A DNA stretch of 43,436 nucleotides from an uncultured bacterium (GTDB lineage Bacteria; Muiribacteriota; Ozemobacteria; Ozemobacterales; Ozemobacteraceae): the NCBI GenBank assembly GCA_964613435.1, contig CAZTHA010000001.1, positions 1-43,436 on the forward strand, given 5' to 3'. A program made the position numbers and the translations under genes. Shown here one piece after another: positions 1,777-26,277 of the stretch (the first letter of the stretch is position 1; every line of letters starts with the position of its first letter). A model generated the notes under the pieces. It had not been told where the DNA came from, ran no database searches, and worked only from the letters and a program-made list of their open reading frames with translations.

Positions 1777-3033
1777 ATGAAGAGATTTTTATCGGTTGCC
1801 TTGTTCTGTTTGTTTGCGGTTGCAGCTTCAGCCTCTGAAAATATCAAAGAATGGACCATTCTCGTTTATGCTGTGACTGATTCAGTGCTTAATGAAACGG
1901 TCATGGCCGATATCGATGAGATGGAAACTCTCGGATCGAACGATCAGATCGAAATTTTGATGCAGGTCGACCGAAATGATTATAACCCGGTCAGATATCG
2001 TATCGTAAAGGACGATCGCCCTGGTTTTATTGCGTCAAACATTGTTGGTCATCCCGAAAATGCCGATTGTGGTTCCTGGAAAACTCTCGACGAATTTGTT
2101 GCCTGGGGTTTGCATCGAGCTCCATCACGCAGGGTGATGCTGGTTTTGCATGGTTGTCTGGGCAATCTCGGCTACGGCGCCCCAATCAAGGATCAATTAC
2201 AGGAAGTCTTTTTCGATCGACAATTTTCTGATGTTAAATTCAAGCTTGATAGAAGCAAAATTGCCATTGAAAAGGATAAAGAGAACGGGGCCCGTTATAT
2301 GGGTATCCGTCAGATGGGATTTGCCTTAAAGTCCATTCAGGTTCGCCTTGGTAGAAAAATTGATCTGGTTTGTCTCGATGACAGCTGTGAATGTTCGATT
2401 GAAAAGTTTTTCGAATATAGAGCGTATGTTGATTATTGGGTGGGTTCCGCCGGATTTTTGCCGAGCGATAACTGGCCCTACGAAAAGTTTTTCCGGCCTC
2501 TCAAAACTAACCCTCAGTCTGAGGCCAAAGACCTTGCCATTTATGCAGTAGAGGCGTTCAAGGAACATTATACCCCTTATTGCAATTTGCCCTACGGCTT
2601 TGGGGCAACCTTAACCGCATTTAAACTTGAGCATGGTCAGGAATTGATGGCCTGTCTGAAGCAGCTCTCTGCCGATCTTTATCCGTTGGCAAAGAATCGG
2701 GAAAACTGTGTCAAAATTTTGAATTTAAAAGAAAAGGTTTTGCACTATCTCAGCGGAGATGAAATAGATCTGAAACAATTCGCCGAAGGTCTTTTCAGAT
2801 TGCGACTTTCAGACTCACCTGAGTTTCTGGCCAATTGTCAGAGGCTGGCTGAGATTTGTGAAGAAGTTCGCCTGGCACACTGGGCTGATGGCCGATATTA
2901 CAAAAACGCCAATGGTGTTTCGATGAGTGTTTACAATTACCTCTTCGGTTACGATCTGCAAAAATATCGATTACTGGAATGGGATAAATTCAGTCGCTGG
3001 TCCAAATTTCTGGTCAGACTGGGCAAGTCCTGA
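1777..3033 (+). CDS. Secreted clostripain-like cysteine peptidase (C11 family)
   Basis: Signal peptide MKRFLSVALFCLFAVAASA. WTILVYAVTDSVLNE resembles the C11 signature WT(V/I)xVY(M/L)xxDNNLE. Candidate His/Cys dyad contexts are MLVLHGC and DLVCLDDSCECS. RBS GAGGAGGG upstream of the ATG. Confidence 0.6.
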   Translation: MKRFLSVALFCLFAVAASASENIKEWTILVYAVTDSVLNETVMADIDEMETLGSNDQIEILMQVDRNDYNPVRYRIVKDDRPGFIASNIVGHPENADCGSWKTLDEFVAWGLHRAPSRRVMLVLHGCLGNLGYGAPIKDQLQEVFFDRQFSDVKFKLDRSKIAIEKDKENGARYMGIRQMGFALKSIQVRLGRKIDLVCLDDSCECSIEKFFEYRAYVDYWVGSAGFLPSDNWPYEKFFRPLKTNPQSEAKDLAIYAVEAFKEHYTPYCNLPYGFGATLTAFKLEHGQELMACLKQLSADLYPLAKNRENCVKILNLKEKVLHYLSGDEIDLKQFAEGLFRLRLSDSPEFLANCQRLAEICEEVRLAHWADGRYYKNANGVSMSVYNYLFGYDLQKYRLLEWDKFSRWSKFLVRLGKS

Positions 3034-3061: not shown

Positions 3062-4978
3062 TTAACTAATTCTTTTGATCGGACTTAGTTGAAACTGTTC
3101 GCCGTTAAGGCTAAATGCCGTTTCTGCAGAATTTCTTGCCGGTAGAAGCTCGGAAAAAGGCAGAGCGGGCCCGATGACAAGGGTCAGACTATCAATCTTG
3201 TCCAGGAAACATTCATTTTTCTGTCCGTTGATTGTAATCTGCCAATGGTCCGGAGCTGGATTGGCGAGAACTTTGCGATCAAACAACGCCAGGCAGGGTT
3301 TGAAAGTAAGATCTTCGCAGAGCAGGTTGGCGGTAAAACCTTCTATGAAAATTTTGATGTCAGCAATGAAATAGTTTTTCAGGTATTTGACCTGTCGTCG
3401 GTCACAGGCCAGGATAATAGTTTGAATACGATCCGAGAATTGTCGGGCCGAAAGATTTCCAGCCTGTAAATGCTGAACCAGAGCCACTAGTGTGTCGTTG
3501 CCTGGTCGACAATTCATGTAGGTTCGTTCTTCGTTGATACGATAGGCTTGCAAAACCATTTTCTGCCAAAGCTCATGATCATTTTTTCTGAAATAATCCA
3601 AAATTCGGCAATAGCCTTCAATAAAGTCCCTGGCTTTGGTCTCAAGCTCTTGCAGTTGTTCGATCGAAGAAACGGTATGGTTTTTTCGCAGTGTTTTTTC
3701 AATGCTTTCGGTCATGCCATCCACTTTTGATTCGGCGAAGTTATTTGAATCATTGCGCAGTAAGCCCATGGCGGTTTCAAAATCCCCAAAGTTTTGTTCA
3801 AAACAAATCGGAAAAAATCTAAACAATCTGGAAAAATTGAAGACGGCTAAATTCTGGTTTTCCTCGTTCCATGGGGCGGTTGCCTTGAAATTGGGAAACA
3901 TCTTCATTGCCAGTTCGCTGAAGTCGGCTACCATCTGCTCATACTCTTTTTGGCTTATAGGAAGACTTTTGGCTGATTGTTGTGCATTTAGCCCGATCAG
4001 GTCAAGAAAGCGAAGCTCCAGGTGCTCCTTTTTCGAACGGTCGAAGATTCTATAAACTTCCTGGCAGCGGATCTTTTCGCTATTGAAATGGTGGTTGACC
4101 ATGGCTTTCAACAACTTTTTCTGTCCGCTGCCTTCGAGGCCGAAGAAATTGCTGAGCCAGTTTGGCCGATATGACCATTGTGGGGCCCTGCTACGCAGTG
4201 CAAAAACCGTATCATAGTCGATCATATGACCATGGATGGAGATATTCCCCGCAGACCAGCAGCCATGAAGAATTCTTTCAATGAATTTTTCCGCGTCCTG
4301 TTTCCCAAGATCGCGGGCAAATTGCCTGAAAAAATCAGCATTGACCGGTTCGTTGCGGAAAAAAAGATGTGTTGGCCGGTCGAGTTCGCCGTTTTGATCG
4401 AGTCTTACTATGAAACCGCCGGGATACTTGCCCGTGCGCCAGGGAACCTCGATCAATTCCCCGGTATCGATAACCGCCAGAACCGGTGCGCTGCCCGTCT
4501 TGAGATTGCTGCTGATAACATTGGCGCAGATAGCTTCCCATAAAGCACTGACCAGGTCGAGATGGCCATTGGAATGATTTTTATCGCTTGAAGTAGCGAG
4601 AACGGTTTTTCCGATTCCTTTCAGATTGAAGATTTTGCCGTAGTAAACGGCTCTGCCCGAACCTGAATTGCCATTGAGAGACATCTGCATCGGATCGGCC
4701 TGGCGATCGACAAAAACTTTTTTGCACGAACTTTCTTTATCTGGTTGGTTTTGATATTCGAGCTTTAACAAAAGGTGCTTTTCAACAAATTGCCTGGCTT
4801 CTTCAGTTGACATTGGTTTGCCGGCATTATTTTTCAACAGGCCCGGCTGGACGAAAACAATTCTTGCCTGACCCTCTTCTAATTTTCCCGCAAACATTTC
4901 GGCAAAGCAGTTGCTGCCAAGTCTTGCCAAGGCATCGGGAATTGTCTCGATCAAATGATGGCTCTGTTCGTTTGTCAT
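3062..4978 (-). CDS. Divergent SelO/YdiU (UPF0061)-like kinase-fold protein (putative nucleotidyltransferase/pseudokinase) with extended C-terminal region
   Basis: NGNSGSGRAVYYGKIFNLKGIGKT...NGHLDLVSALWEAICANVISSNL..SAPVLAVI parallels SelO GQLGDGRAxLLGE..LKGxGxTPYSR.GDGRAVLRSSIRExLxSEAM..LGIPTTRAL. HGCWSAGNISIHGHMIDYDT parallels HGVMNTDNMSxxGxTxDYGPF. Start taken at ATG 4978 (MTNEQSHH); the track start at 5038 is a TTG. Confidence 0.55.
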   Translation of the reverse strand: MTNEQSHHLIETIPDALARLGSNCFAEMFAGKLEEGQARIVFVQPGLLKNNAGKPMSTEEARQFVEKHLLLKLEYQNQPDKESSCKKVFVDRQADPMQMSLNGNSGSGRAVYYGKIFNLKGIGKTVLATSSDKNHSNGHLDLVSALWEAICANVISSNLKTGSAPVLAVIDTGELIEVPWRTGKYPGGFIVRLDQNGELDRPTHLFFRNEPVNADFFRQFARDLGKQDAEKFIERILHGCWSAGNISIHGHMIDYDTVFALRSRAPQWSYRPNWLSNFFGLEGSGQKKLLKAMVNHHFNSEKIRCQEVYRIFDRSKKEHLELRFLDLIGLNAQQSAKSLPISQKEYEQMVADFSELAMKMFPNFKATAPWNEENQNLAVFNFSRLFRFFPICFEQNFGDFETAMGLLRNDSNNFAESKVDGMTESIEKTLRKNHTVSSIEQLQELETKARDFIEGYCRILDYFRKNDHELWQKMVLQAYRINEERTYMNCRPGNDTLVALVQHLQAGNLSARQFSDRIQTIILACDRRQVKYLKNYFIADIKIFIEGFTANLLCEDLTFKPCLALFDRKVLANPAPDHWQITINGQKNECFLDKIDSLTLVIGPALPFSELLPARNSAETAFSLNGEQFQLSPIKRIS

Positions 4979-5228
4979 GTCATTACCATCGCAGGAATGG
5001 ATTAAAAGCCTCGGTGATGGTTGGCGTGCTCCGACCAAAGTTGATCTGATCGCTCTTTTTGCGGAAATGGGTCAAAAAAGCCCGATTGGCCAGGATTTTG
5101 TTTGGGCAGAAGCCAGAGATGCGCATTCTGCATGGTATTTCAGCTTCTATTTCCAGGAAATCCGCTGGTCATATTTTGATGATCACAGCCGCTATGGCCG
5201 TGTCGTTGCTGTTCGTCCCGCTAAATAA
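4977..5228 (+). CDS. Short ORF encoding only the C-terminal half of a DUF1566 (Lcl C-terminal, C-type-lectin-like) domain; possible gene remnant
   Basis: GWRAPTKVDLIALF...FVWAEARDAHSAWYFSFYF......GRVVAVRPAK matches the DUF1566 pattern (d)WRLPTxxELxxL ... yWsst...nAWyvnF..g......vRcVR. No signal peptide and no N-terminal half of the domain. An in-frame TGA at 4956-4958 precludes extension. Confidence 0.35.
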   Translation: MSLPSQEWIKSLGDGWRAPTKVDLIALFAEMGQKSPIGQDFVWAEARDAHSAWYFSFYFQEIRWSYFDDHSRYGRVVAVRPAK

Positions 5229-5258
5229 GTCTTTTCGATTTAAATTAGAGCAGGTTCA

Positions 5259-6647
5259 ATGGGAAAAATGCTGTTGCTTTCGCCGCCGTTGTATTGCGAA
5301 AGGCATTTGCGGCGAAGTTTTCAACCCCCATTGAACCTGCTTTATCTTTATGCCTATTTAAGGGCTAAAAACCTTGAAGTTGAGCTGTTTGAAGCTGATT
5401 CAATCGAGGATGCGGTTGAAGAAATCCTTGAAAAAGGTGCCGATCTTGTCGGAATCCCCCTTTATTACGCCTCTTTGAATAATGTTTACTCGATTGTTGA
5501 GCAGGTTCGTAATAGGAATTCCACGATAAAATTCGTTGCCGGCGGGCCGTGCCTGACCATGGAGTCCGAACGGATGATGCAGGAGGGCAACTTTGACTTC
5601 GGCGTGATCGGTGAAGGCGAAGAAACTCTGTATGAGCTTTGCGAGGCCTTGACCAAAGGTGTTGCCCCGGATGATATCGACGGACTGGTGTGTCGCCAGA
5701 ATGGCAGAATCGAAGCAAATACTCGTAGAAAGCCTATTTCTAATCTCGACGAACTGCCTTTTCTTGATTTTACGGTTGTTGACAATGATTACTATTTCGA
5801 TTTTCAGGAAAAATCAGGAGTTCCCAAAACTCTTTTTTTGAACAGCTCACGGGGTTGTTCTTTTCGCTGCAGTTACTGCTGTACGCCGGTTCTGTGGCCG
5901 GGGCCGGTCCGTCGCTATTCACCACAACGAATGGTTGATGAAATACGCTATCAGCTCAAAATTTTTCCCGAAGTTGAATTTGGTTTTTGCGATGATTCTT
6001 TTTTTTCAGACCGAAGTTGGCTCGAAAAATTTCTTGAGCTGGTAAAGCCGTTAGAAATCAAGTTTCAGTGCATCGGGCGCGCCGATCATTTGCAGCCACA
6101 AACTATTGCCAAACTGGTCGCTGCGGGAATGACCTACATCGCCTTTGGAGTTGAGACCGGCAATTCCGACCGGCAAAAAAGGCTTCAGAAAAATCTGAAT
6201 TTTAAGCGACTGTTTGCAACAATGCGGGAACTGGCCAAATATGAAGTTAAGACCAAGTGTTTTTTCATGCTTGGTTTTCCTGATGAAACGGTTGCCGAAA
6301 TGGCTGAGACAATCAATATGGCGGTTGAACTTCGTCGTCTGGGAATGGACTATTTCAGTATTTTTCCAGTCAGCGTTTATCCTGGCACCGAGCTGGCGCG
6401 ACAATTTCCGGTGGAATCATTTTCATCGGGTCTGGATGCGCACATGCCTGAAATTATTCGCGACGGTCTCGAGATCGATTTTCAGAATCAGGCCTTGTTG
6501 AAGCAAAGGTTTAATCGGCTTTTAAGTCAGCGGCAAATGATCGAAGCAGTTTCTTATGCCTGGGAAAAAGTCGATCGAGCCGAAAGTATATGTGTTGAAG
6601 AACTTGCGGCGGTTATCAGCGATGCTGCCGACGCAGACAACGGCTGA
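5259..6647 (+). CDS. Class B (cobalamin-binding domain) radical SAM enzyme, paralog 1
   Basis: N-terminal B12-binding-like region (PPLNLLYLYAYLRAKN...VGIPLYY...FVAGGPCLT...FGVIGEGEETL). Radical SAM cluster motif CSFRCSYC (CxxxCxxC, nt 5856-5879) in SRGCSFRCSYCCTPVLW. Clearly paralogous to 7902-9320. Confidence 0.85.
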   Translation: MGKMLLLSPPLYCERHLRRSFQPPLNLLYLYAYLRAKNLEVELFEADSIEDAVEEILEKGADLVGIPLYYASLNNVYSIVEQVRNRNSTIKFVAGGPCLTMESERMMQEGNFDFGVIGEGEETLYELCEALTKGVAPDDIDGLVCRQNGRIEANTRRKPISNLDELPFLDFTVVDNDYYFDFQEKSGVPKTLFLNSSRGCSFRCSYCCTPVLWPGPVRRYSPQRMVDEIRYQLKIFPEVEFGFCDDSFFSDRSWLEKFLELVKPLEIKFQCIGRADHLQPQTIAKLVAAGMTYIAFGVETGNSDRQKRLQKNLNFKRLFATMRELAKYEVKTKCFFMLGFPDETVAEMAETINMAVELRRLGMDYFSIFPVSVYPGTELARQFPVESFSSGLDAHMPEIIRDGLEIDFQNQALLKQRFNRLLSQRQMIEAVSYAWEKVDRAESICVEELAAVISDAADADNG

Positions 6648-6672
6648 AACAGAGTTGCAAAAGGAGAAAAAC

Positions 6673-7905
6673 ATGGTTTCACCCTCGGTAGTGCAGAATA
6701 TTGTCTTTAATAATGCTGATCCAAATGAACCGAGAAGTATAAATCTCTACTTCGATCATTATAAGGGAGAACCTATCTATCGGGTAGTGGCCTATCTCAA
6801 CAATTCAGGCTGCGAATGGTCGGTTAAGACCGGTGGCTGTACCATGTGCGGCACGAAAAATTCCCGCCTCGGCCGAAAAATTTCCGATGCCGAATTTTCA
6901 AATCAATTCGCGCTGATCAGAAAGTATGTAACTCAGTTCAATGCCCAGCTCGATGTTCCGGTAAAATCTTTGCATGTTTATAATGACGGTTTTTTCTTCA
7001 ACGACAACGAAATTTCGCCGGAATCGAGAGAGCAGATTTTTGCCATGGCTACCGATCTGAAAATGCAAAAGCTTGTTGTTGAAACCAACGGAATCGATAT
7101 CGTTAAAGATGACCGGAACAACGACTACCTGGGTAAAGCGGTCAAGCGTCTGGGCGAGACTGAGTTCGAGATAACTCTGGGAATCGAATCGACCAATCCG
7201 CTGATTCGTGCTCTTTACAATAAGCCGGACAGTTTTGAGGATATGCAAAAAAGCCTTGATATCATTCGCAGCAAAGGCGCGACGCTAAAAGGTTATGTTC
7301 TGGTCAAGGGACCGATGTTAACCGAGGCCGAGGCTTATGCCGATTGTGTGGAGACGATCAGGAATCTTGAGTGCTGGAGTGCTGGAAAGCGTTTCAGAGT
7401 CGAGTTTCAACCCGTGTGTCATCTGCCCAATACTTTGCACGAATACCTGATGCAATTGGATCATGCCGATCCATATTTCTGGGAACCACCTTTGTTGAGT
7501 ACGCTTTTTCGGATTCTCGCCAATTTTCCGGAAATGGGCGAAGATCTCTACACCGCTCTTTTCGCACGCATCGATCGGGATTCGCCCTGGGATTTCTGGG
7601 TAAATCGACCTCATGATGACCCGGAAACAACCTACAAACTCTATCTGAAACTTGTCGACCATTACCTTTATCGTCGCCACGAGTCGGTTACCTCGGCTCT
7701 GGAAATAGCCCATGAAGATTTGTGGTTGAAAAGGTGTGAAAGAAAAATAGAGCAATCCCTTGAGGAAAGAGTTGCCATGGTTAAAAAGCTTCTTGAACTG
7801 AGTCGAAAGAATCGGGTTCATTTAAGTGATTATTTAAAAAATAATCTTGCCAATGAAGGTAACTTCTGGGAACGGTGCAGCCGGCATCTCGACAGTCTTA
7901 AATGA
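6673..7905 (+). CDS. Radical SAM enzyme of the Elp3-like / TIGR01210 (RaSEA-like) type with C-x8-C-x2-C motif
   Basis: NNSGCEWSVKTGGCTMCGTKN (Cys codons 6811, 6838, 6847) matches the GCxW....GGCxMCG pattern I recall for TIGR01210-family radical SAM proteins. GIESTNPLIRALYNK resembles the Elp3-type core. Start chosen at ATG 6673 behind AAGGAG (6661-6666); the track start 6556 would overlap the upstream gene by 92 nt. Confidence 0.6.
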   Translation: MVSPSVVQNIVFNNADPNEPRSINLYFDHYKGEPIYRVVAYLNNSGCEWSVKTGGCTMCGTKNSRLGRKISDAEFSNQFALIRKYVTQFNAQLDVPVKSLHVYNDGFFFNDNEISPESREQIFAMATDLKMQKLVVETNGIDIVKDDRNNDYLGKAVKRLGETEFEITLGIESTNPLIRALYNKPDSFEDMQKSLDIIRSKGATLKGYVLVKGPMLTEAEAYADCVETIRNLECWSAGKRFRVEFQPVCHLPNTLHEYLMQLDHADPYFWEPPLLSTLFRILANFPEMGEDLYTALFARIDRDSPWDFWVNRPHDDPETTYKLYLKLVDHYLYRRHESVTSALEIAHEDLWLKRCERKIEQSLEERVAMVKKLLELSRKNRVHLSDYLKNNLANEGNFWERCSRHLDSLK

Positions 7906-9320
7906 TTTCACAACCTGATATTTTGTTGATTGCTTTGCCGCTGCTTTGGAGCGAGAGCAATCTTCCCGACATGAAGCAGCCGCTCAATCTGCTTTATCTG
8001 GCCAGCTGGCTCAATGCGCGCGGGTTGCGGGCGCAGGTCCTTGACGCCGCTTGTGAAAAGCTTTCCTTGCAAAATGTTTTGCGGCATGTTCAGCAAAGAG
8101 GGCCCAGATTTGTCGGGGTTTCATTTTATCAGGCGACCCGCGATACGACCCTGGAACTATGCCGTGAAATTCGCAGAGTAATGCCGCATGTGTGGATAGT
8201 TGGCGGCGGTCCGCTGGCCACAACTTCAGCTGAGAGTTTGCTTGAAAATGGTCTGTTGGATTTCGTCGTCATCGGCGAGGGTGAGCTCAGCCTCGAGGAG
8301 CTTTTGCGCAGCGATTTACCGACCACCAGGCAGGCGAATGTCGATAGTTCTTTAGTGCATGACATTGCTGGTATCGCATTTCGCCAGGCTGATCGGCCAA
8401 TTTTTACCGCTGAGCGTGAGCCGATCTCTGAGCTTGATAGCCTTCCCTATCTTGATTTTGAACTGATAAACATTCATCGCTATTTTGCTTATCATGCTTC
8501 CATCGAAATGTCCGACTGGCTTTTTTTGACCACTTCGCGTGGCTGTAATGCGCGTTGTGTTTTTTGTGCAACCCCAGTGCTCTGGCCGAAGGGCATGCGG
8601 CGTCAATCAGCTAAAAGAGTACTCGATGAAATTCTTTTTCAGCGCCAACGCTATCCGACTTCGCAGTTTGGTTTTATGGATGATTCTTTCTTTTCCGACA
8701 AAAAATGGTTACATGACTTTTGTGACGGTATAAGACCGATGCGGGTCAAATACTGCTGCATCGGTCGTGCCGACCATCTCAGCGAAAAGGATGTGGCGGC
8801 TCTGGCATCGAGTGGTTGCATATATGTGGCCATGGGCATTGAAACCGGGAATCAACTTCGGCAGCGTTCATTAAAAAAGAACTTAAACCTGTCGCGGGTT
8901 AAAAAATCGGTTAAATTGCTCCATGAGTATGGAATTTTCAGCAAGGGCTTTTTCATGCTTGGCTTTCCCGATGAAACCGCCCAGGATATGCTCGAAACTA
9001 TCAATTTTGCCGTTGAGCTCAAGGCTTTGGGTATGGGAGAGTTCAGCTTTTTTCCGGTGTCGATTTACCCGGGTACCGAACTGGCCGAAAAGTTCTCGCA
9101 AAATTTTTACGTTTCGAAAATATATCGACATCATAGCGGATTCAACGATTATGCCGAAGAAAGAATGCGGCGTTATGCCAACATTCCTGGTGCCAACGTA
9201 AATTATATCTTTAACAGTGTTCAGATTGTTAACATTGTTAGATTTGCCTATCGGCAGGTTGAATCGGGCAGGCCCGCCAGCCTCGAAAACCTTGTTGCGG
9301 CAGCTGAAATAGTTGATTAA
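7902..9320 (+). CDS. Class B (cobalamin-binding domain) radical SAM enzyme, paralog 2
   Basis: Same architecture as 5259-6647: QPLNLLYLASWLNARG...VGVSFYQ...IVGGGPLAT...FVVIGEGELSL. Cluster motif CNARCVFC (nt 8544-8567). ATGA start/stop overlap with the upstream gene (7902-7905). Confidence 0.85.
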   Translation: MISQPDILLIALPLLWSESNLPDMKQPLNLLYLASWLNARGLRAQVLDAACEKLSLQNVLRHVQQRGPRFVGVSFYQATRDTTLELCREIRRVMPHVWIVGGGPLATTSAESLLENGLLDFVVIGEGELSLEELLRSDLPTTRQANVDSSLVHDIAGIAFRQADRPIFTAEREPISELDSLPYLDFELINIHRYFAYHASIEMSDWLFLTTSRGCNARCVFCATPVLWPKGMRRQSAKRVLDEILFQRQRYPTSQFGFMDDSFFSDKKWLHDFCDGIRPMRVKYCCIGRADHLSEKDVAALASSGCIYVAMGIETGNQLRQRSLKKNLNLSRVKKSVKLLHEYGIFSKGFFMLGFPDETAQDMLETINFAVELKALGMGEFSFFPVSIYPGTELAEKFSQNFYVSKIYRHHSGFNDYAEERMRRYANIPGANVNYIFNSVQIVNIVRFAYRQVESGRPASLENLVAAAEIVD

Positions 9321-9322
9321 AT

Positions 9323-11002
9323 CTATTCGACTGATTCAGATGCTTTTAAGATTTCATTGGTTCTGGCTATGGCAGCATTGAGATTTGGGTTGACGTTTTC
9401 TTTGCCAATTCGCTCGACAAACCCTGATTTGGTTAAAACCCGCATTGGTTGGGGCTGAACTCCTGAAAGCACCAGTTTCGGCCCACCGGAAAGCTGGTTG
9501 TTTAACAGGCTTTCAAGAACGCGCAGTCCGGTTGCATCGAGGGAACCGACGTTGCGCATTCGCAGAATCATAACTTTCGGTGTTGTAGTGAAGCCGGCCA
9601 GCATCGAGGTAAATTTGTGTGCCGCGCCAAAGAAGAACGGACCATTTACTTCATAAACCATAACCCCTTCAGGAAGTCCCGAAAGGGCAGCGGCATCGGC
9701 GGCGCAAATACGATCGGCAGTTGCTTCGTCGGGGGCCAGAGACTGAACTTCAGCCAGGTCGACCATTCTTTTCATGAACAAAACTGCGGCAAGAACTATT
9801 CCAAGCTGTATTGCCACCGTGAGATCGATCAGGACGGTAAAAGCGAATGTACAAAGAAGAACGCTGGCATCGCTTTTAGTCGTTCCCTGCAAAATTCTTT
9901 TGAAAAGGTGAATTTCGCTCATGTTGTAGGAAACGACCAGCAGTATTCCTGCCAGCACTGCCATCGGCACCAGACTGGCGAGGTTTCCTGCCGCCAGAAG
10001 AATGATCAACAAAGTGACGGCGTGAATCAATCCGGCAAAAGGTGACCTGCCACCGTTTTTAATGTTGGTTGCGGTTCTGGCAATGGCTCCAGTGGCCGGT
10101 ATTCCCAGAAAGAGAGGCGAAACGATGTTTGCTACGCCCTGAGCTACAAGTTCAGCATTTGAACGATGATGGCGGCCGGTCATGCCGTCGGCAACAACCG
10201 CCGAAAGAAGGCTTTCAATGGCGGCCAGCAAAGCTATGGAGATTGCCGGAGAGATCAGGTCTGGTAGAACTTTCCAATCTATTGACGGAAGTTGGGGCAT
10301 TGGCAGGGAACCGGGAATTGAACCAAATCGACTGCCGATAGTTTCAACCGGCAAATCAAATGCTTTTACGGCGGCAGTGACGAGAACCAAAGCGACAACT
10401 GAACCTGGAATTCGCGGGAAAAGCCTTGGAACAGCGAGGATGATGAAAATCGTCGCCAGAGTTATGCCAGTTGCCCAGGGATTGAAGGTTCCGATGGTCT
10501 CGGCATAGGCGGATATTTTGTGCAGGAATTCTGAGGGAACCGAAGTCATTTGCAGTCCGAGGGCGTCGCGAATCTGTCCAGACGCGATTACAACCGCAAT
10601 GCCGCTGGTGAAGCCGACCGTAACCGGGTAGGGAATGAATTGAATGATCGAGCCAAGTCTGGCAAAGCCAAGAATTATCAAGATCAAACCAGCAATCATT
10701 GTGGCAACGGCCAGACCCTCGTAACCAAATTTACTGACGATTTCAAAGACCAGGACGATGAAAGCCCCGGTTGGGCCGCCGATTTGAACTCTGCTGCCAC
10801 TAAGCAACGAAATTATAAAGCCGGCGATAATGGCGGTATAAAGTCCCTGTTCGGGTTTTACGCCTGAGGCAATGGCAAAGGCGATAGCCAGTGGCAAGGC
10901 GACAATGCCAACGACGATGCCGGCGAGAAGATCTTTGAAAAATTGGCTGCGGTCGTAGCCTTCACGTAAGACGGTGATCAACTTGGGTTCGAGCGAGTTC
11001 AT
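9323..11002 (-). CDS. SulP-family anion permease with C-terminal STAS domain
   Basis: FKDLLAGIVVGIVALPLAIAFAIASGVKPEQGLYTAIIAGFIISLLSGSRVQIGGPTGAF is a typical SulP N-terminal core. C-terminal VMILRMRNVGSLDATGLRVLESL is STAS-like. Start set at ATG 11002 (MNSLEPK); the track start is 11068. Confidence 0.85.
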   Translation of the reverse strand: MNSLEPKLITVLREGYDRSQFFKDLLAGIVVGIVALPLAIAFAIASGVKPEQGLYTAIIAGFIISLLSGSRVQIGGPTGAFIVLVFEIVSKFGYEGLAVATMIAGLILIILGFARLGSIIQFIPYPVTVGFTSGIAVVIASGQIRDALGLQMTSVPSEFLHKISAYAETIGTFNPWATGITLATIFIILAVPRLFPRIPGSVVALVLVTAAVKAFDLPVETIGSRFGSIPGSLPMPQLPSIDWKVLPDLISPAISIALLAAIESLLSAVVADGMTGRHHRSNAELVAQGVANIVSPLFLGIPATGAIARTATNIKNGGRSPFAGLIHAVTLLIILLAAGNLASLVPMAVLAGILLVVSYNMSEIHLFKRILQGTTKSDASVLLCTFAFTVLIDLTVAIQLGIVLAAVLFMKRMVDLAEVQSLAPDEATADRICAADAAALSGLPEGVMVYEVNGPFFFGAAHKFTSMLAGFTTTPKVMILRMRNVGSLDATGLRVLESLLNNQLSGGPKLVLSGVQPQPMRVLTKSGFVERIGKENVNPNLNAAIARTNEILKASESVE

Positions 11003-11268
11003 AATTATTCCTGCAGATGAAAAACTTAAATAATTCGGTAAGGTATGGGCTGGGAATTCTATTCCCATAGCAGCTTTCTGTCAAAATCAGGGTTTTTTCG
11101 ATAGAGGCGATATTACAAGAAAATACTACCCATAGCAGCGGCAAAGACCTTTTCTGTTTATTTGCTGAAAAACCCCTGTTTTTTTGCGGATTTTCGTGAA
11201 AATTGATTTGTTTTACGTTTCGACATTTCATATTGATTGGCAATTCTGGAAGGCGTAGAATCAAGATA

Positions 11269-12216
11269 ATGTCAGAAGAATCGTCACTTTTTCCGCTTGG
11301 TTTACCTGATCGGGAGCAGCCTGAATTCTTTGCCCGGCTCCTCTGGTTCGGCCAATTCATCGAAGAGAATTGCCGGCGTAATTGCCAATTTGATTTGAAT
11401 AATTGGCCCAACCCGGTTTGGCAAGCACTGGCCAGAAAACTATTCCTTGGCCTGGAGGACTTTTCAAAAACAAAACCCGAGCCTGGGCAGGTTGTCATCT
11501 TACAATGGTATAACTCCGGCATTCTCGTTAAAACTCCTGAGCAGGTGCTTGGCTTTGATTTGGTGCCAATTCCCCGTTATTACTGCTGGCCTGATGAAAT
11601 GGGTTTGACCGGCCTTCTGGCTGAAGTTATCGATGTGCTTTTCGTTACCCATAATCATGCTGATCACTTCGATTCCGAACTGATCAAGGAATGTAATAGA
11701 TTGAATCGGCCTGTATTCATGCATCCGCAAGCAGTGCCTGCCCATTTAAGCGAAATCGGCAAATTGCCAGATCAAACTTCGATCAGAATTGGTCAGACTC
11801 GGGTAAAAGCTCATCATGGGCGCCATGTCTGGCGAAGCCTTGCCGAAGAGGTCGCGACGAGTGGTTTTGAGGTTGAGCTTGCCGGCGGGTTTCGTTTTGT
11901 TTTCTGTGGAGATCTTGATTACACCGTGGGTTTGACAAATGTGACTGCAGAACCGGACGTTTTATTCATAACCTGGCGCAATCCTGGACCGGCATTTGAA
12001 GATGGTCACCCAGAACAAAGAGGTAACACCGTCGATGCAGTTAACATTGCCATAGAGCAGGTGAAGCCACGCATGATCGTCCTTGAACATTATGCTGAAC
12101 TTGATCATGTCTATCATGGGTTTTCGGCGAGTTACGAATTGGCCTTGCAGCTTATTCGAAGCCTGCCGGTAAAAACCGAGATCCTGTTCTGGGGCGACAA
12201 ATTAGCGCTTAGCTGA
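11269..12216 (+). CDS. Metallo-beta-lactamase-fold hydrolase
   Basis: HxHxDH motif in LFVTHNHADHFD, with later His/Asp residues (KAHHGRH, CGDLDY). Start set at ATG 11269 (MSEESS). Confidence 0.65.
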   Translation: MSEESSLFPLGLPDREQPEFFARLLWFGQFIEENCRRNCQFDLNNWPNPVWQALARKLFLGLEDFSKTKPEPGQVVILQWYNSGILVKTPEQVLGFDLVPIPRYYCWPDEMGLTGLLAEVIDVLFVTHNHADHFDSELIKECNRLNRPVFMHPQAVPAHLSEIGKLPDQTSIRIGQTRVKAHHGRHVWRSLAEEVATSGFEVELAGGFRFVFCGDLDYTVGLTNVTAEPDVLFITWRNPGPAFEDGHPEQRGNTVDAVNIAIEQVKPRMIVLEHYAELDHVYHGFSASYELALQLIRSLPVKTEILFWGDKLALS

Positions 12217-12217
12217 T

Positions 12218-13117
12218 TTAGTTGATCTTTTTCAGTTCGTTCATCAGCTTGATGACTGCGATTTCTTTGGCTTTGGCTTCTATCTCGACGGTTATTTCAA
12301 GGTCTTTCCAGCAGTCGGGAAAATCGGCCGGATCGATAAAATCATGGTGTCGGTGTGGTTTCGCCCCTTGCCAGCCTTCAAGAGGGCTTGAAAGATGAAA
12401 CATCGGTTCCCGGTTCCATGTTTTCAGCGCCTTTTTCGTTGCCTGTTCTATGCTCAAGCCGTCAGTGAGGCAGCGGTGGTGATGAACATCGTATACCAGG
12501 GGAATACTCAGCTGCCGACAAAGAGGCAAGAGTTCTTCGGGGCTGTAGACTTTATCGTCATTTTCAAGGGTAAGCCTGGTTTTCGCTCTTTTTGAAAGGA
12601 GCTGAAAATTTTCAGCAAATCTTTGCAGGGCGGTCTTTTTGTCACCGTATGCGCCGCCGCCATGAATGTTGATGACATCTGCGCCGGTGAGTTCGGCAAT
12701 TTCAGCCTGATACTCAATTTCGGCAATCGAAGATTTTACGACATCAGGGTTCGGCGAGTTCAGCACGACAAACTGGTCTGGATGCAAAGATGCCCGCAAA
12801 GCATTTTCCTGCAAAAAATCCCCGCAGTTTTTAAAGATACTTACAATTTCGTCGCCATCGGGTAGGTCGTTGAAATCATAAGATATTTGCGGATGGGTTT
12901 TAAGCGGCAGAATCTGGCTGACGATGCGAAAGCAACCGATGTTGTTGGCGAGGCAGAATTCAAAAGCCCTAAGCAAGGCTCTGGCATTGGCCAGGCAAAG
13001 GGTTGAAAGCTTTTTCAGCTGCTCCTGTCTGCTAAGAGTCAGCAAATATTTGGCAGTCGTGGTCGCGAACTTAATTGGCTGATCTTTAAAGATGCAGCAA
13101 AGACCGAATTTGATCAT
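12218..13117 (-). CDS. uvdE: UV damage endonuclease UvdE
   Basis: KFGLCCIF start, VINIHGGGAYGDKKTAL, RLTLENDD and VYDVHHHRC follow the conserved UvdE TIM-barrel metal-site blocks. Confidence 0.8.
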   Translation of the reverse strand: MIKFGLCCIFKDQPIKFATTTAKYLLTLSRQEQLKKLSTLCLANARALLRAFEFCLANNIGCFRIVSQILPLKTHPQISYDFNDLPDGDEIVSIFKNCGDFLQENALRASLHPDQFVVLNSPNPDVVKSSIAEIEYQAEIAELTGADVINIHGGGAYGDKKTALQRFAENFQLLSKRAKTRLTLENDDKVYSPEELLPLCRQLSIPLVYDVHHHRCLTDGLSIEQATKKALKTWNREPMFHLSSPLEGWQGAKPHRHHDFIDPADFPDCWKDLEITVEIEAKAKEIAVIKLMNELKKIN

Positions 13118-22326: not shown

Positions 22327-24387
22327 ATGAAATACAATTCAGGTCTGACAAAAATACTCGCGGGTTCATTATTGCTCTTGCTGGTATTTTTCCTGGTAAT
22401 AATTGTCTGCGAAGAAGCCGATGCACGAGCCGGGGGTGGCCATCGCTACTCGGGCGGCAGCAGGTCAAGTTCGAGTTCAAGCTCGGGTTATCGAAGTAGT
22501 GGTAGCAGCAGCTGGGGCAGTTCTTCCCGAAGTAGAGGCAGTAGTGGCGGAGGAGCCCCTGCTGACCCAGTTGTTATTCTTTTTTTTGTCGTCATTTTCA
22601 TTGTAATTGCTGCGCTTAAGCTTTGGATTGCCAACTCTGACAATGTGCCGAGCATACTCAAGATGTTTTTGTCCGTTGATCGTGAGATGGTTTCAACTAT
22701 TCGTGAGGCCAGTCAGATTCAGCCCTCGCGGATGAAATCCGTTTCTCTCGATGCTTTGAAAGCCAGAGATCCCAACTTCAATGAAAGGGTTTTTGCTGAA
22801 CGGGCGAAAAAAGCTTTTGCGGTTATTCAGCAGGCATGGTCTGCCCGTGATTTGGTAAAGGCTGAGGCGTTTTTGTCAGATGGCATTTATGAGCAGTTCA
22901 ATATACAGCTTTCGGAATTGCGCGAAGCTGGCCTGATCGATCATATGGAAGGTCTTAATGTCCGCAATGCTTATGCGGTAGGATTTCAAACAGATAAAAA
23001 CTTCGATGTCATCCATCTGCGAATCGATGCCAGCGCAATAAACTATCGCAAAGATGAGAAAACCGGCAAAGTTGTCGAAGGCAGTCGCTCACCCGAACCA
23101 TTTTCCGAAGTCTGGTCATTTATGAGAAAACCAGGTGCCAAGACCGGTAATAAGGGTGGTTTGCTCGAAGGGCAATGCCCTAATTGCGGCAATCCCATTA
23201 AAATTGGGCGATTGTCAAAATGTGATGTCTGTAATGCCCTGTTACGCTCTGGTGAATATGACTGGGTTCTTGTCAGTATCACCCAGGCCTGTGAATGGGG
23301 CGTTCGCCCGCAGCCAGCGGTGCCGGGCATGGATGAATTGGTGAAAAGTGACCCCGGCTTCAACATGCAGCACCTTAAAGAGCGTGCTTCAGTTATTTTC
23401 TGGCGAAAAATCGAGACTGAAAGAACCGGTAAAATTGATTTTCTGCGTAAAGTTGCTCTAGATGAATTCTCGGAAAATGAAAGCAACTGGTTAAAAGCAG
23501 ACAAATCAGGCGCCCGTCGTTTTTACACTTCCTGTGCCGTTGGGATTATTAATCTTCTGGGAATAGAAGCCGGCGAGGACAAGGACAGGGCAATGGTCGA
23601 GGTTGTCTGGAGCGGAATTCCTTCGACTCAGACAGCCGGAAAAATTCAGCCCTCCTCGGGTGGGCCAATCAATCAAAAGAATGTTTTCATTCTTGTCCGA
23701 AAACATGGCGCTCAGACGAAACTTGAATCGACTCTGGCAAGTGCGCATTGTCCGTCATGTGGTGCTCCCGAACAAACTGGTACCGAAAACGAATGTCAGT
23801 ATTGTGGCGCGGTCATGAATGATGGCAAGGTTGAATGGGTTCTTGAGGCTGTTTGTGATAGAACTGACGATCGGGTAGCCGGAATGCTTATCAGAGCAAA
23901 AAACGCACGCAAAGAAAGCCCTGCTCCTGTTGGGGCAACTTCACCTGCTTCGGCAAAAGTTGAAGCAAAAGAAATCGAAACGGTTATTTCCGGGGTCGAA
24001 CTTATGCGTTACACTATTGCGATGATGATGGCTGACGGCAAGATCGACGCCCAAGAACTGGAAATGATAAAGAGTCTGGCTCAGCGGGCAGATCTTAACA
24101 ACAGCAAACTGCAGCCGATCGTCGACGAATTGAAGCGGGCACCGGATCCTGTGCAATATGCGATCGATATGAGCCTTAACGAGCCCGATCAGGGGCTGTT
24201 GCGACAATTGGCGCGGATTGCCCTGGCGGATGGAAATGTCAGTCCTCAGGAATCGCAGATGCTCAAGAATATCGGTATCAAGATCGGGTTTGCCGCCTAT
24301 GATATCGATCAGCTTATCAAACAGGAAAAGAAGCAGATGTTCCAGGAAGCACAGGAGCTATTGCGTCGTCAGAAAAATCCGAGTTGA
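22327..24387 (+). CDS. Membrane protein with Ser/Gly/Arg-rich linker, two Tim44-like domain + zinc-ribbon modules and a C-terminal TerB-like domain
   Basis: Two hydrophobic helices flank GGGHRYSGGSRSSSSSSSGYRSSGSSSWGSSSRSRGSSGGG. Tim44-like pattern DPNFNERVFAERAKKAFAVIQQAWSARD...EVWSFMRKPG, then CPNCGNPIKIGRLSKCDVCNA. Second copy DPGFNMQHLKERASVIFWRKIE...VFILVRKHG, then CPSCGAPEQTGTENECQYCGA. TerB-like repeats AMMMADGKIDAQELEMIKSL and RIALADGNVSPQESQMLKNI. Confidence 0.6.
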   Translation: MKYNSGLTKILAGSLLLLLVFFLVIIVCEEADARAGGGHRYSGGSRSSSSSSSGYRSSGSSSWGSSSRSRGSSGGGAPADPVVILFFVVIFIVIAALKLWIANSDNVPSILKMFLSVDREMVSTIREASQIQPSRMKSVSLDALKARDPNFNERVFAERAKKAFAVIQQAWSARDLVKAEAFLSDGIYEQFNIQLSELREAGLIDHMEGLNVRNAYAVGFQTDKNFDVIHLRIDASAINYRKDEKTGKVVEGSRSPEPFSEVWSFMRKPGAKTGNKGGLLEGQCPNCGNPIKIGRLSKCDVCNALLRSGEYDWVLVSITQACEWGVRPQPAVPGMDELVKSDPGFNMQHLKERASVIFWRKIETERTGKIDFLRKVALDEFSENESNWLKADKSGARRFYTSCAVGIINLLGIEAGEDKDRAMVEVVWSGIPSTQTAGKIQPSSGGPINQKNVFILVRKHGAQTKLESTLASAHCPSCGAPEQTGTENECQYCGAVMNDGKVEWVLEAVCDRTDDRVAGMLIRAKNARKESPAPVGATSPASAKVEAKEIETVISGVELMRYTIAMMMADGKIDAQELEMIKSLAQRADLNNSKLQPIVDELKRAPDPVQYAIDMSLNEPDQGLLRQLARIALADGNVSPQESQMLKNIGIKIGFAAYDIDQLIKQEKKQMFQEAQELLRRQKNPS

Positions 24388-24441: not shown

Positions 24442-24490
24442 AAAAAAAAGAAACGCTTAAGGCATTTATTTATGCTTTAAGCGTTTTTTT
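24442..24490. terminator. Bidirectional rho-independent terminator closing the G3E/ABC/DUF364 operon
   Basis: AAACGCTTAAGGCAT (24451-24465) pairs with ATGCTTTAAGCGTTT (24472-24486), 15 bp with one G-U. Flanked by an A8 run upstream and a T7 run downstream. The minus-strand stop of the DUF364 gene lies in the loop region. Confidence 0.75.
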
Positions 24491-25240
24491 GAATGCGACC
24501 TTTTGTCCGGTAGAAAAAATTTTGCCGTTTTCGCTGCCTTTGATTATACGCAATGCTCTTTTACAGTCTTTGACGACGAAACCGGAAAGATCATCGACGC
24601 CGTAATCAAAAAGAGCAGGCGCAAGAGTGGTTGAGGGTCCGACGATCGTTCGTTTCAAAGCTTTTTTGGATAATTGCAAGTATCTGGGTAAGGTTTTGTC
24701 GATCAGACTTGAACTGCCGATGTAGACGAGGTCACTTTCCGGCAAGAGATAATCGGTTGCAGAAACAGGGAAATCACCTTCCTGAGGAATTTCACCGCTG
24801 ATGATACTCATTTCGCAGATCGGTTCAAGCAGGGTTTGAATATAAGGAAAATGGCCAATAACAGTGACTTTTTTCCCGCGGACTTCGTGCTGACCCATGA
24901 TAAAGGGATCGTAAACCCGGTCTTCTACGTGAAGTGAGTCATGAATCTGAACCCCGTTTTCGCTGGCAATTTTAATGTTATTGAAGTAAGCATTAATGGC
25001 GGCTAGACCAATGGACGCCTCGTAAAAGTTCCAGGCTTTTACGCATTTGGCAAGTTCTTTGAGCTTCATGCCGACCGGGTATTCGGCCAATACCGGTTTA
25101 CGATAATCATAAATGCGATGCTCGGCAATGCCAAGACCATTATTACTACGCACACATGAATAATGAGTTCCTTTGATTACTTCTTCAACTGTCCAGTCTT
25201 CAGGAATTTCATCGATAAGTCGGTCGTAAATTTCCCACAT
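24470..25240 (-). CDS. DUF4213/DUF364 protein (putative heavy-metal chelation, Rossmann-like domain)
   Basis: IYDRLIDEIPEDWTVEEVIKGTHYSCVRSNNGLGIAE and KKVTVIGHFPYIQTLL...LLPESDLVYIGSSSLIDKTLPRYL...IVGPSTTLAPALFDYGVDDLSGFVV fit my recollection of the DUF4213+DUF364 consensus. Start ATG 25240, 2 nt after the upstream TGA; the track start 25354 would overlap by 112 nt. Confidence 0.65.
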   Translation of the reverse strand: MWEIYDRLIDEIPEDWTVEEVIKGTHYSCVRSNNGLGIAEHRIYDYRKPVLAEYPVGMKLKELAKCVKAWNFYEASIGLAAINAYFNNIKIASENGVQIHDSLHVEDRVYDPFIMGQHEVRGKKVTVIGHFPYIQTLLEPICEMSIISGEIPQEGDFPVSATDYLLPESDLVYIGSSSLIDKTLPRYLQLSKKALKRTIVGPSTTLAPALFDYGVDDLSGFVVKDCKRALRIIKGSENGKIFSTGQKVAFKKTLKA

Positions 25241-25242
25241 GC

Positions 25243-26277
25243 TCAAAGTTTTCCTTTGTCTTGAAAGATGTTCATGTCGATTTGCCCGCCTTGCCTTAAA
25301 GCTTTTCTCAGGCGTGAAAAGGTTGAATCCAGTTGTTGTATCGTGTCGAGACAATTTTTTTCATTTGCCGAGGTAACGATAATCTGGCTGACTCCGCCAT
25401 TCTTGATGACGATGCGTTTATCGGCGCTCAGGGCTAGAAGTGGATCATGAGTGGAAATGAAAACTATTTTTTCTTTTCGGGCAAGAATTTCAATCGCTTG
25501 CCGACGATCTATTCCTGCATTTTCAATCTCATCGATCAATACGATTGGTGATGCGCTCATGAACGCGGTGTCGGCAATCATCAAAGCTCTTGATTGACCA
25601 CCGCTGAGTTGGGTTAACTTGGTGCTGAGCTCAAACTTCTCACCTGCCATGCTGTTGGCACAACTAAAGCATCTGTCGATAGCGTCTTCGATGTCATCGA
25701 TGAAGCGGCTTCCTGCATGCATTTCAAGAAATTCTTTTACGGTGAGATCCATTACAAAATTCATGTTCTGGGAAAGTTGGGCAACCAGTTTTCCTTCCAT
25801 GTCAAAGCGTTGCTGCTCTGAGATGCTCTCGCCATCAATAAGTATTTTTCTTCCTGTCGGCGTATCGATGTCAGCCAGGCATTCAATATCGGCCAATAAT
25901 CTGCTTTTACCTGAACCGGTCGGTCCAACGATGCTGATCGTTTCGCCAATAGAAGCCGACCATTCGGCTATTTCCGGCTCACCATTCTTGTTTTTTCCGC
26001 CAATAACAGTAAGTGATGCAATTGTAGATGCGGCTGTTCCGCCCCGGGCGAAGGTTTCAAGAAAAAGGCAGAATTCCCGAAAAATCATATCCTTATCGAG
26101 GCCAAAATCTTCGAGAGTTTCCCTGCTTGTTTTTTCAAGAGCACGGCTAAGGGTTAAATTGATGTCGATGTCGTTGATGCGAAGATTGTGGAAAAAACCA
26201 CGACAAAATGGATGTTCATCAAATATCTGTTTTAAAGGTTGTGAAATTGCCATTTCCAAAAAATTGGGCTGACTCAT
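25243..26277 (-). CDS. Soluble ABC-type ATPase with about 110-aa N-terminal extension and no cognate permease
   Basis: Walker A IVGPTGSGKSRLL, Q-loop region, signature LSGGQSRALMIA, Walker B PIVLIDEIENAGID, H-loop FISTHD. ATGA overlap with the upstream GTPase gene (26274-26277). Confidence 0.8.
   Translation of the reverse strand: MSQPNFLEMAISQPLKQIFDEHPFCRGFFHNLRINDIDINLTLSRALEKTSRETLEDFGLDKDMIFREFCLFLETFARGGTAASTIASLTVIGGKNKNGEPEIAEWSASIGETISIVGPTGSGKSRLLADIECLADIDTPTGRKILIDGESISEQQRFDMEGKLVAQLSQNMNFVMDLTVKEFLEMHAGSRFIDDIEDAIDRCFSCANSMAGEKFELSTKLTQLSGGQSRALMIADTAFMSASPIVLIDEIENAGIDRRQAIEILARKEKIVFISTHDPLLALSADKRIVIKNGGVSQIIVTSANEKNCLDTIQQLDSTFSRLRKALRQGGQIDMNIFQDKGKL

Follow-up and report, generated by a model that had tools for sequence, protein, structure and literature searches.

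A conserved operon of three radical-SAM enzymes in Riflebacteria, with one RaSEA-related and two B12-domain members

Closest described systems and layout of the operon

RaSEA is the radical S-adenosylmethionine (SAM) enzyme that leads from preQ0-Lys15-tRNA to archaeosine. In this reaction, a lysine adduct is converted into an amidine by RaSEA in complex with ArcS, and arcS and ArcTGT co-occur (PMC11298593). We analysed a stretch of 43,436 nucleotides from an uncultured bacterium of the Ozemobacteraceae (contig CAZTHA010000001.1; this whole stretch is called the window hereafter), in which the gene of an enzyme related to RaSEA, g2, lies between the genes of two radical-SAM enzymes with B12-binding domains, g1 and g3. 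The triad g1-g2-g3 is a co-transcribed, translationally coupled operon. It is a rare conserved module, largely confined to Riflebacteria, and not a chance arrangement. As judged from family libraries and the searchable literature, the association of a TIGR01210-type enzyme with two B12-domain radical-SAM enzymes corresponds to no characterised cluster. The interpretation that we tentatively favour is a three-step anaerobic radical tailoring of one soluble small-molecule substrate.

With regard to radical-SAM enzymes with a B12-type domain, HpnJ is a hopanoid-associated enzyme with a proposed ring contraction, and BchE is the anaerobic Mg-protoporphyrin cyclase. GrsA and GrsB are two B12 radical-SAM paralogues acting at different positions of one substrate (PMC13459092), and MgmA is described as methylating a glutamine of methyl-coenzyme M reductase (PMC11796369). 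AprD4, a 1,2-diol dehydratase, and ArsL have the same type of domain and do not bind cobalamin (PMC12931638). According to the same 2026 review, most groups of B12 radical-SAM enzymes are unexplored and their reaction is not known (PMC12931638).

The stop codon of g1 is separated from the ATG of g2 by a 25-nucleotide gap, and the stop codon of g2 overlaps the start codon of g3 in an ATGA at 7902-7905 (Table 1). This overlap, and the gap with its ribosome-binding site, indicate translational coupling, and the coupled three-gene operon proposed by a first-pass annotation of the same DNA is confirmed. The full open reading frame (ORF) around g2 extends from 6556 to 7905. The ATG at 6673 is the most plausible start, because AAGGAG lies 6 nucleotides ahead of it, and the alignments of g2 orthologues start at this residue. 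The intergenic gaps of the locus measure 2-30 nucleotides, and the GC content is uniform over the window, where no tRNA, no Rfam match, no cobalamin riboswitch and no cobalamin supply gene were found.

Affinities and conservation of the three enzymes

The first-pass annotation described cobalamin-binding-type domains at the N-termini of g1 and g3, and Pfam bears this out. The B12-binding domain scores 67 bits in g1 and 70.8 bits in g3, and the Radical_SAM domain 75.9 and 70.3 bits, respectively, all above the gathering scores. By their predicted architecture, an N-terminal PF02310 domain followed by a CX3CX2C core, both enzymes fit the definition of class B radical-SAM enzymes. HpnJ and BchE have the same architecture and are the top-scoring named families of NCBIfam: g1 scores 119.7 bits with HpnJ and 81 bits with BchE, and g3 scores 134 and 130 bits, respectively. 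However, these scores are 4-5 times under the cut-offs (577.6, or 578 when rounded, and 481). The model of 'lipid biosynthesis B12-binding/radical SAM protein' (TIGR04072) gives 98-114 bits, ApyD gives 107-124 bits and the model of a C-methyltransferase of peptides that are ribosomally synthesised and modified post-translationally (RiPPs) gives 85-91 bits. None of the named B12 radical-SAM models (HpnJ, BchE, ladderane TIGR04072, ApyD, PhpK, BzaD, MgmA, HpnR and RiPP C-methyltransferase) reaches its cut-off, the best scores being 120-134 bits compared with curated cut-offs of 281-750. The named B12 radical-SAM pathways (hopanoid, bacteriochlorophyll, ladderane, BzaD, PhpK and MgmA) were therefore rejected, both for these scores and for the absence of companion genes; no hopanoid or bacteriochlorophyll gene occurs in the window or in the related loci. 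This agrees with the earlier statement that the gene set matches no characterised pathway.

The nearest solved structures by sequence are AprD4 (PDB code 6FD2, E 3.5e-17 with g3) and MgmA/QCMT (PDB code 9CCB, E 1.2e-10 with g3). The similarity is remote in both cases, and the other genes of either pathway are not present. The methylase chemistry that had been suggested for g1 and g3 is not established by these comparisons, as the nearest models are HpnJ and BchE and the best structural match does not bind cobalamin. GrsA and GrsB resemble the present pair in their logic, with two related B12-domain radical-SAM enzymes in one pathway. In contrast to g1 and g3, they act on archaeal lipids and require no partner of the TIGR01210 type.

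The two enzymes align with each other from end to end (38% identity, E 5e-111), and all the motifs quoted in their support when they were first called paralogs are present. The homology therefore holds over the full length, but the two genes are no simple local duplicate pair: in a rough neighbour-joining tree, g1 and g3 are not sisters, and each groups with non-triad relatives from several phyla, including solo g3-like paralogues in Riflebacteria genomes. On the basis of their sequences, g1 and g3 are members of one tight, multi-phylum family of B12-domain enzymes. When the g1 and g3 clades are compared with 57 non-triad relatives, 79 positions show a conservation of >=85-90% throughout, and only 19 positions are conserved within both clades yet differ between them. 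The conserved family motifs are SRGCxxxCxxCxxPxLWP, FxDDSFF, CIGRxDH, GxETG, FFMxGFPxE and YxGTE. The three cysteines of the cluster motif are invariant in the family alignment, and an auxiliary cluster is unlikely since there is one conserved cysteine besides those of the SAM cluster.

Several gene neighbourhoods of these relatives were recorded. In other phyla, a recurring g3-like neighbourhood (L088, 6986-16410; L089; L093, 5466-9569; relatives at 42% identity) comprises a glycerol-(1-phosphate)-dehydrogenase-like Fe-ADH_2 protein, a B12 radical-SAM enzyme and a SPASM radical-SAM enzyme, with a Cache protein, an MFS/HEAT protein and an MMPL/HAE3 transporter in addition in L088. It looks like an uncharacterised lipid or polyol pathway. 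Another g1/g3 relative (L092) is accompanied by a second B12 radical-SAM enzyme and a Cache/HAMP protein. L087 (6174-13567) contains a SulP gene, a g3-like enzyme (46% identity), a Tll0287-like protein, a carbamoyltransferase and a TIGR01210-like protein of 322 amino acids (52 bits), and is a second, independent pairing of the B12 and TIGR01210-like radical-SAM lineages. A carbamoyltransferase is also found near the TIGR01210-like gene of the Streptomyces plasmid pFRL3 (L177).

The middle enzyme belongs to a separate, TIGR01210-like lineage, as was first proposed. Its Pfam Radical_SAM match (22 bits) is under the gathering score, and its best and only NCBIfam match is TIGR01210 (99.8 bits, E 1.7e-28, residues 28-264). 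It has in common with RaSEA the cluster motif GCxW(x6-7)GCTMCG and the core residues G106, E113, G170, E172, K184 and P214; G46, C47, W49, C56, M58, C59 and G60 are invariant in the g2 clade, in the intermediate proteins and in the named RaSEA sequences. RaSEA and g2 are also alike in being encoded beside partner enzymes, with which joint work is probable. In contrast, the score of g2 is less than half of the family cut-off (212.15), its identity to named RaSEA sequences is 21-23%, its host is bacterial and its partners are two B12-domain radical-SAM enzymes. Furthermore, the C-terminal PHNCxxCD...CxC of RaSEA (named sequences P0034, P0036 and P0037), whose importance for RaSEA is read from the alignment, is not present in g2; at these columns the g2 clade has RPHDDPETT, with no cysteines, and a clade-specific helical region instead. 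Neither ArcS nor TGT/ArcTGT nor PUA-type proteins were detected among the Pfam-annotated ORFs of the window or among the conserved ORFs of the 13 triad loci. As far as the sequence indicates, g2 lies within the RaSEA/TIGR01210 superfamily but is not RaSEA, since every membership test that could be run gave a negative answer with the exception of the cluster motif. An archaeosine or 7-deazaguanine pathway was rejected in view of the score, the lack of ArcS and TGT and the missing C-terminal cysteine motif. A PTPS gene near the triad of L004 was likewise discounted because it belongs to a DHPS-HPPK-FolC folate cluster and occurs in one genome only.

The AlphaFold model of g2 has a mean predicted local distance difference test (pLDDT) of 92. 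Compared with solved structures in Foldseek, it retrieved generic radical-SAM barrels only, which give no substrate clue; the highest query template-modelling scores (TM-scores) were to Elp3 (0.49-0.50), and queuine lyase was among the top matches. A sequence search of solved structures with g2 returned nothing. When 1.84 billion cluster representatives were searched exhaustively with HMMER, the whole g2 clade formed one cluster at 50% identity, followed by a single outlier at 181 bits and then by about 1,000 TIGR01210-like clusters at <=123 bits. Among plasmid homologues, none is close to g2 (29-31% identity at most) or to g3 (28%), and with the even GC content a plasmid or mobile origin was rejected. 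On a plasmid of the Clostridium acetobutylicum pSOL1 type (L176, 4423-7449), two tandem DUF1659/DUF2922 small-protein pairs are followed by a TIGR01210-like gene and a small membrane protein, a possible peptide-modification cassette.

In a species scan with one genome per species, g2 orthologues were found in 12 other Riflebacteria species (59-93% identity) and in one Nanoarchaeia metagenome-assembled genome (MAG; 52%), and the next-best matches were RaSEA-like proteins of archaea at about 33-35%. Nearly all named homologues belong to Candidatus Riflebacteria, Rifleibacterium or Ozemobacteraceae. Orthologues of both g1 and g3 accompany g2 in 11 of the 12 other Riflebacteria loci, the twelfth being L007: g1 orthologues (55-66% identity) stand beside g2 in these 11 species and g3 orthologues (50-82%) in all 12. 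Each of the seven g2-clade contigs of a metagenome collection that has enough flank contains g1 and/or g3, and no g1/g3-type gene lies within the flank of about 140 other TIGR01210-family loci. The first-pass annotation had allowed for two outcomes that would overturn it, namely orthologues falling into a characterised cluster or genes that do not co-occur in other genomes. Neither was observed, as no named pathway was matched and the triad recurs in 11 of 12 species. The flanking genes differ among the triad loci, and the triad is apparently inherited vertically.

Two loci depart from the common arrangement. In L007, which is the closest relative (MAG SRP304446_co1_153), g1 is broken at 9187-9475 by two deletions corresponding to window positions 5170-5682 and 5970-6147, with g2 (93% identity) and g3 (82%) intact; the C11-like peptidase and SelO-like genes of this locus are also shortened. 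The loss of g1 could be real decay or a co-assembly artefact. From 6147 to 12989 of the window, that is from the 3' end of g1 over g2 and g3 into the downstream region, nucleotide identity to L007 is about 78%, and the 93% identity of the g2 protein against this value indicates purifying selection on the triad. In a distant Riflebacteria species (L004, 4850-14412, equivalent to the L018 region), the order is g3 (minus strand), g2, an MFS transporter and g1, with the three genes still inside 6 kb. The L004 triad comes directly after a folate-type DHPS-HPPK-FolC-PTPS row, and ProRS is located downstream. In two Candidatus Nanoarchaeia MAGs (L005, 10001-11293; L006, 6061-7353), a g2 orthologue at 52% identity occurs without B12 radical-SAM genes on contigs carrying TrmB regulators and an archaeal-type ProRS. 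This lone archaeal g2 implies an old inter-domain transfer and a g2 that is able to act without g1 and g3.

Candidate substrates of the triad

In the interpretation that we favour, g1, g2 and g3 would act one after the other on a single soluble, non-polymeric substrate and tailor it in several radical steps that do not depend on oxygen. The substrate would be, for example, a metabolite derived from an amino acid or a sugar, or a cofactor. Given their 79 near-invariant common positions, g1 and g3 are most likely alike in the kind of radical chemistry that they catalyse, each at its own position of one scaffold. This could be a cobalamin-assisted C-methylation, or a rearrangement or cyclisation of the HpnJ/BchE type. 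Like GrsA and GrsB, BchQ and BchR are reportedly a precedent for a paralogue pair acting at two positions. With its TIGR01210-type Cx8CxxC SAM cluster, g2 would probably cleave or rearrange a bond in a radical step related to RaSEA's C-N chemistry. The close coupling of the genes suggests that the three proteins may form a stoichiometric complex, as RaSEA does with ArcS.

The small-molecule substrate is favoured because the three proteins are acidic (isoelectric points of 4.9, 5.8 and 6.6) and exhibit no RNA-binding, RRE, SPASM or membrane features: Pfam identified no nucleic-acid-binding domain in g1-g3, there is no hydrophobic segment and the grand average of hydropathy (GRAVY) is negative for each. 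In addition, bacterial TIGR01210-like genes are found in metabolite-type clusters. These comprise P450, SHMT, GT9 and carbamoyltransferase genes on Streptomyces pFRL3, FabZ, KS, FabG, AsnB, PPTase and ABC genes on a Bacillus thuringiensis plasmid, and DAO, methyltransferase, racemase and ETF genes in a Fibrobacter MAG. Transporters that sometimes abut or interrupt the triad (MFS in L004/L018, SulP by g3 in three loci) point in the same direction, as does the SulP gene that precedes the g3-like gene of the unrelated locus L087.

Several observations weigh against this interpretation. No nonribosomal peptide synthetase, polyketide synthase, glycosyl- or prenyltransferase or dedicated exporter is conserved with the triad, SulP adjoins it in just 3 of 13 loci, and an acidic isoelectric point is weak evidence. 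Vertical conservation throughout the phylum is uncommon in specialised metabolism and rather resembles that of a housekeeping modification, and the lone g2 in a DPANN archaeon favours a universal substrate, for example RNA or a nucleotide. The use of cobalamin by g1 and g3 is a prediction, and AprD4, which they match best among solved structures, is not a cobalamin binder. A strict interdependence of the three genes is contradicted by L007, in which g1 is broken by deletions. Finally, to our knowledge, all characterised members of TIGR01210, TIGR01212 and Elp3 act on tRNA, judging from NCBIfam names and general knowledge.

The vertical conservation, the lack of scaffold-forming genes and the lone archaeal g2 leave room for a nucleic-acid substrate, which we consider unlikely and yet the best of the alternatives. 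In this case, g2 would act in a RaSEA- or MnmL-like manner on a modified base of tRNA, rRNA or DNA, and g1 and g3 would introduce further radical modifications into the same nucleoside, which would make g1 and g3 the first known B12-domain radical-SAM enzymes with a nucleic-acid substrate. The named relatives of g2 are solely tRNA enzymes, g2 carries the unusual GCxW...GGCTMCG motif of RaSEA and resembles Elp3 and queuine lyase in structure, g1 and g3 have weak matches to MnmL/YtqA (TIGR01212), and both the conservation across the phylum and the lone orthologue in a small-genome Nanoarchaeia MAG would fit such a role. On the other hand, no ArcS, TGT, PUA or other RNA-binding partner is encoded in the 13 loci, g2 is devoid of the C-terminal cysteines of RaSEA, all three proteins are acidic, and the bacterial TIGR01210-like genes mentioned above do not occur with tRNA genes. 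We know of no class B radical-SAM enzyme that acts on nucleic acid.

A post-translational modification of a protein or peptide is rather improbable. Its target could be the secreted Lcl_C-like protein of the gene just upstream, altered ahead of export, or some other protein. The SelO-like enzyme might serve to activate or regulate it through nucleotidylation, a reaction that enzymes of the SelO/YdiU family carry out on proteins. The relatives of g1 and g3 include MgmA/QCMT, ApyD and the RiPP C-methyltransferase, and in 9 other species an Lcl_C-like gene lies about 30 nucleotides upstream of g1 in the same orientation, with a degree of conservation similar to that of the enzymes (68-100% identity). 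The predicted SelO-like fold of the divergent neighbour and the position of the pSOL1 gene after two small-protein pairs are also consistent with this view. Nevertheless, no RRE/PqqD or SPASM domain was found in g1-g3 with Pfam, and among the RiPP hallmarks no conserved precursor-like ORF of >=50 amino acids, protease or exporter was detected. The Lcl_C-like gene is truncated in the window, non-adjacent in L014 and L015 and about 9 kb away in L018, with the triad intact in each case. At least two species have the SelO-like gene at another place in the genome, and none of its distant homologues stands beside radical-SAM genes.

It is likewise improbable that the triad modifies a membrane lipid, with g1 and g3 methylating, cyclising or cross-linking unactivated lipid carbons in the manner of GrsA/GrsB, HpnJ/HpnP/HpnR or the ladderane enzyme. 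HpnJ and TIGR04072 are among the best family matches of g1 and g3, relatives at 42% identity cluster with an Fe-ADH_2 protein, a SPASM radical-SAM enzyme and MMPL/HAE3 and MFS transporters, and GrsA/GrsB provide the precedent of a paralogue pair (PMC13459092). However, all these family matches are far under the cut-off, the three proteins lack hydrophobic segments, the genes conserved with the triad include none for lipid synthesis or MMPL, and the family of g2 includes no known lipid enzyme. A DPANN archaeon with g2 alone is, moreover, not expected to make its own lipids.

Finally, it is very improbable that the clustering merely reflects inherited synteny of independent enzymes, or a decaying locus in the lineage of the window. 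In favour of this, g1 is disrupted in L007 with g2 and g3 remaining, deletions in the window have removed the upstream gene and the intergenic promoter region, g2 and g3-like paralogues also occur alone, and promoter- and terminator-like sites of the window do not exceed the shuffled background. Against it, 11 of 12 other species loci preserve the gene order and orientation (g1 being degraded in L007) over a range of 64-93% in g2 identity and with changing flanks, the rearranged L018 keeps the genes together, start and stop codons indicate coupling, and all three ORFs of the window are intact.

Neighbouring genes and implications

Table 1 Features of the triad and its flanks in the window. Positions are nucleotides of the window.
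Feature	Position	Strand	Description
SelO/YdiU-like gene, kinase fold	3062..4978	-	638 amino acids from ATG 4978; ORF reaches TTG 5038
orf83	4977..5228	+	5'-truncated remnant of the gene of a secreted Lcl_C (DUF1566)-like protein
g1	5259..6647	+	462 amino acids; radical-SAM enzyme with B12-binding domain; intact ORF
g1 CX3CX2C cluster motif	5856-5879	+	C200, C204, C207
AAGGAG ribosome-binding site of g2	6661..6666	+	6 nucleotides ahead of g2 ATG; sequence reading
g2	6673..7905	+	410 amino acids; divergent radical-SAM enzyme of the TIGR01210/RaSEA superfamily; intact
g2 non-canonical cluster motif GCEWSVKTGGCTMCG	6811-6849	+	C47, C56, C59
g3	7902..9320	+	472 amino acids; radical-SAM enzyme with B12-binding domain; intact ORF
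g3 CX3CX2C motif	8544-8567	+	C215, C219, C222
SulP/DauA-like anion transporter	9323..11068	-	Convergent with g3; context gene, functional link uncertain

The divergent gene upstream of the triad had been called SelO-like, which the fold supports and the Pfam SelO model does not. The protein has no Pfam match, PF02696 is absent at E up to 5 in nine orthologues, and searches of PDB sequences with the protein and with an orthologue profile returned nothing. In contrast, Foldseek with its AlphaFold model (mean pLDDT 91) retrieved SelO (PDB code 6EAC) and YdiU at E 3e-13 and a target TM-score of 0.67, and the matches to 6EAC, 6K20 and 6LNA range from E 3e-13 to 2e-12 with target TM-scores of 0.64-0.69. 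The family invariants are GSGRA, KG (K120), E148, HGxxSxxN (H238-N245) and D254, which probably represent the catalytic residues of SelO. The neighbour thus has in common with SelO/YdiU the fold and the pattern of Gly-rich loop, Lys, Glu, HGxxSxxN and Asp, and one distant homologue carries PF02696. It differs in being about 160 residues longer and in having an extra C-terminal beta domain.

The SelO-like gene was also proposed as a possible partner of the triad. It adjoins the triad in the window and in 9 of 12 other species loci, but this is lineage-specific synteny, and a role as obligate partner is weakened by the distant homologues, which lie beside a methyltransferase-like gene of 262 amino acids and no radical-SAM gene. 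In L094 (7213-9923) and L095 (7201-9929), SelO-like homologues (28-32% identity) are preceded by an overlapping or abutting gene of 262-263 amino acids with a GxGxG motif resembling that of SAM-dependent methyltransferases; this two-gene module appears to be uncharacterised. Some SelO-like copies of Riflebacteria are 800-980 amino acids long and may be fusions.

The ORF of 83 amino acids ahead of g1, which had been considered dubious, is the truncated remnant of a conserved Lcl_C-like protein bearing a signal peptide. Its full-length homologues have 133-259 amino acids with an N-terminal signal peptide. Five homologues score 17.5-21.7 bits with Lcl_C, covering nearly the whole profile (gathering score 34.9), and a relative of 171 amino acids in L004 has a recorded PF07603 match. 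About 180 nucleotides of L007 (8803-9009) are missing at 4960-4989 of the window. This deletion takes the divergent intergenic region, the part of the Lcl_C-like gene encoding the signal peptide and the first codons of the SelO-like gene, so that the start codons of the latter and of orf83 now overlap in CATG at 4976-4979. The same truncation is observed in two independent, near-identical contigs (99.9-100%), L001 and L096.

On the other side of the triad, the SulP protein exhibits Sulfate_transp and STAS domains and scores 517 bits with the DauA model (cut-off 614). Its stop codon is separated from that of g3 by 2 nucleotides, and the two genes are arranged tail to tail and not, as first described, head to tail. 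SulP adjoins the triad only in the window, L007 and L011. An all-against-all comparison of the ORFs of >=50 amino acids in the 13 loci revealed only shadow ORFs besides g1, g2, g3 and the SelO-like and Lcl_C-like genes. In PADLOC, g1 and g3 gave a weak generic match to the candidate model PDC-M51A (39 and 30 bits), g2 gave none, and the SelO-like protein gave marginal matches to BrxC and PDC-S26 (about 14 bits, E 0.002-0.004); a defence system was rejected, as none of these matches is meaningful.

Elsewhere in the window, a secreted clostripain-like protein (1777-3033; Peptidase_C11, 63 bits), partly deleted in L007, is encoded beside the SelO-like gene. On the minus strand, 24470-26966 comprises DUF364/DUF4213 ('putative heavy-metal chelation'), an ABC ATPase and a GTPase of the CobW/HypB/UreG type, possibly a metal-handling cluster, with no recognisable cobalamin pathway. 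A protein of 686 amino acids with Tim44-like and TerB domains (22327-24387) and a T2SSE/MshEN secretion ATPase fused to a cyclic-nucleotide-binding domain (37934-39745) were also observed.

Our literature searches found nothing on TIGR01210, nor on Riflebacteria together with radical SAM, and of 775 matches for Riflebacteria with lipid or cobalamin terms, the 20 ranked highest contained no mention of Riflebacteria. Uncharacterised radical-SAM clusters are common and no specific product is indicated here, so the triad is a well-defined lead and not yet a discovery: a sound lead for enzyme discovery, well delimited and conserved, but not exceptional. A more far-reaching idea, which we regard as a long shot, is that the three enzymes form a heteromeric machine in which the RaSEA-type enzyme passes its product to two cobalamin-dependent partners, resulting in a hypermodified nucleoside or cofactor that would be a hallmark of Riflebacteria. 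If true, the RaSEA lineage, which has one characterised function so far, would gain its first function in bacteria, and with RNA or DNA as the substrate this would also be the first case of nucleic acid modified by cobalamin-dependent radical-SAM enzymes. What the locus offers is a compact conserved set, in which an isolated branch of the RaSEA family is strictly paired with two members of one B12-domain subfamily. The archaeal orthologue of g2 alone and L007 with its broken g1 are natural "partial pathway" controls, and expressing the three genes could bring to light radical reactions that are new, together with a metabolite or modification characteristic of an uncultured phylum.

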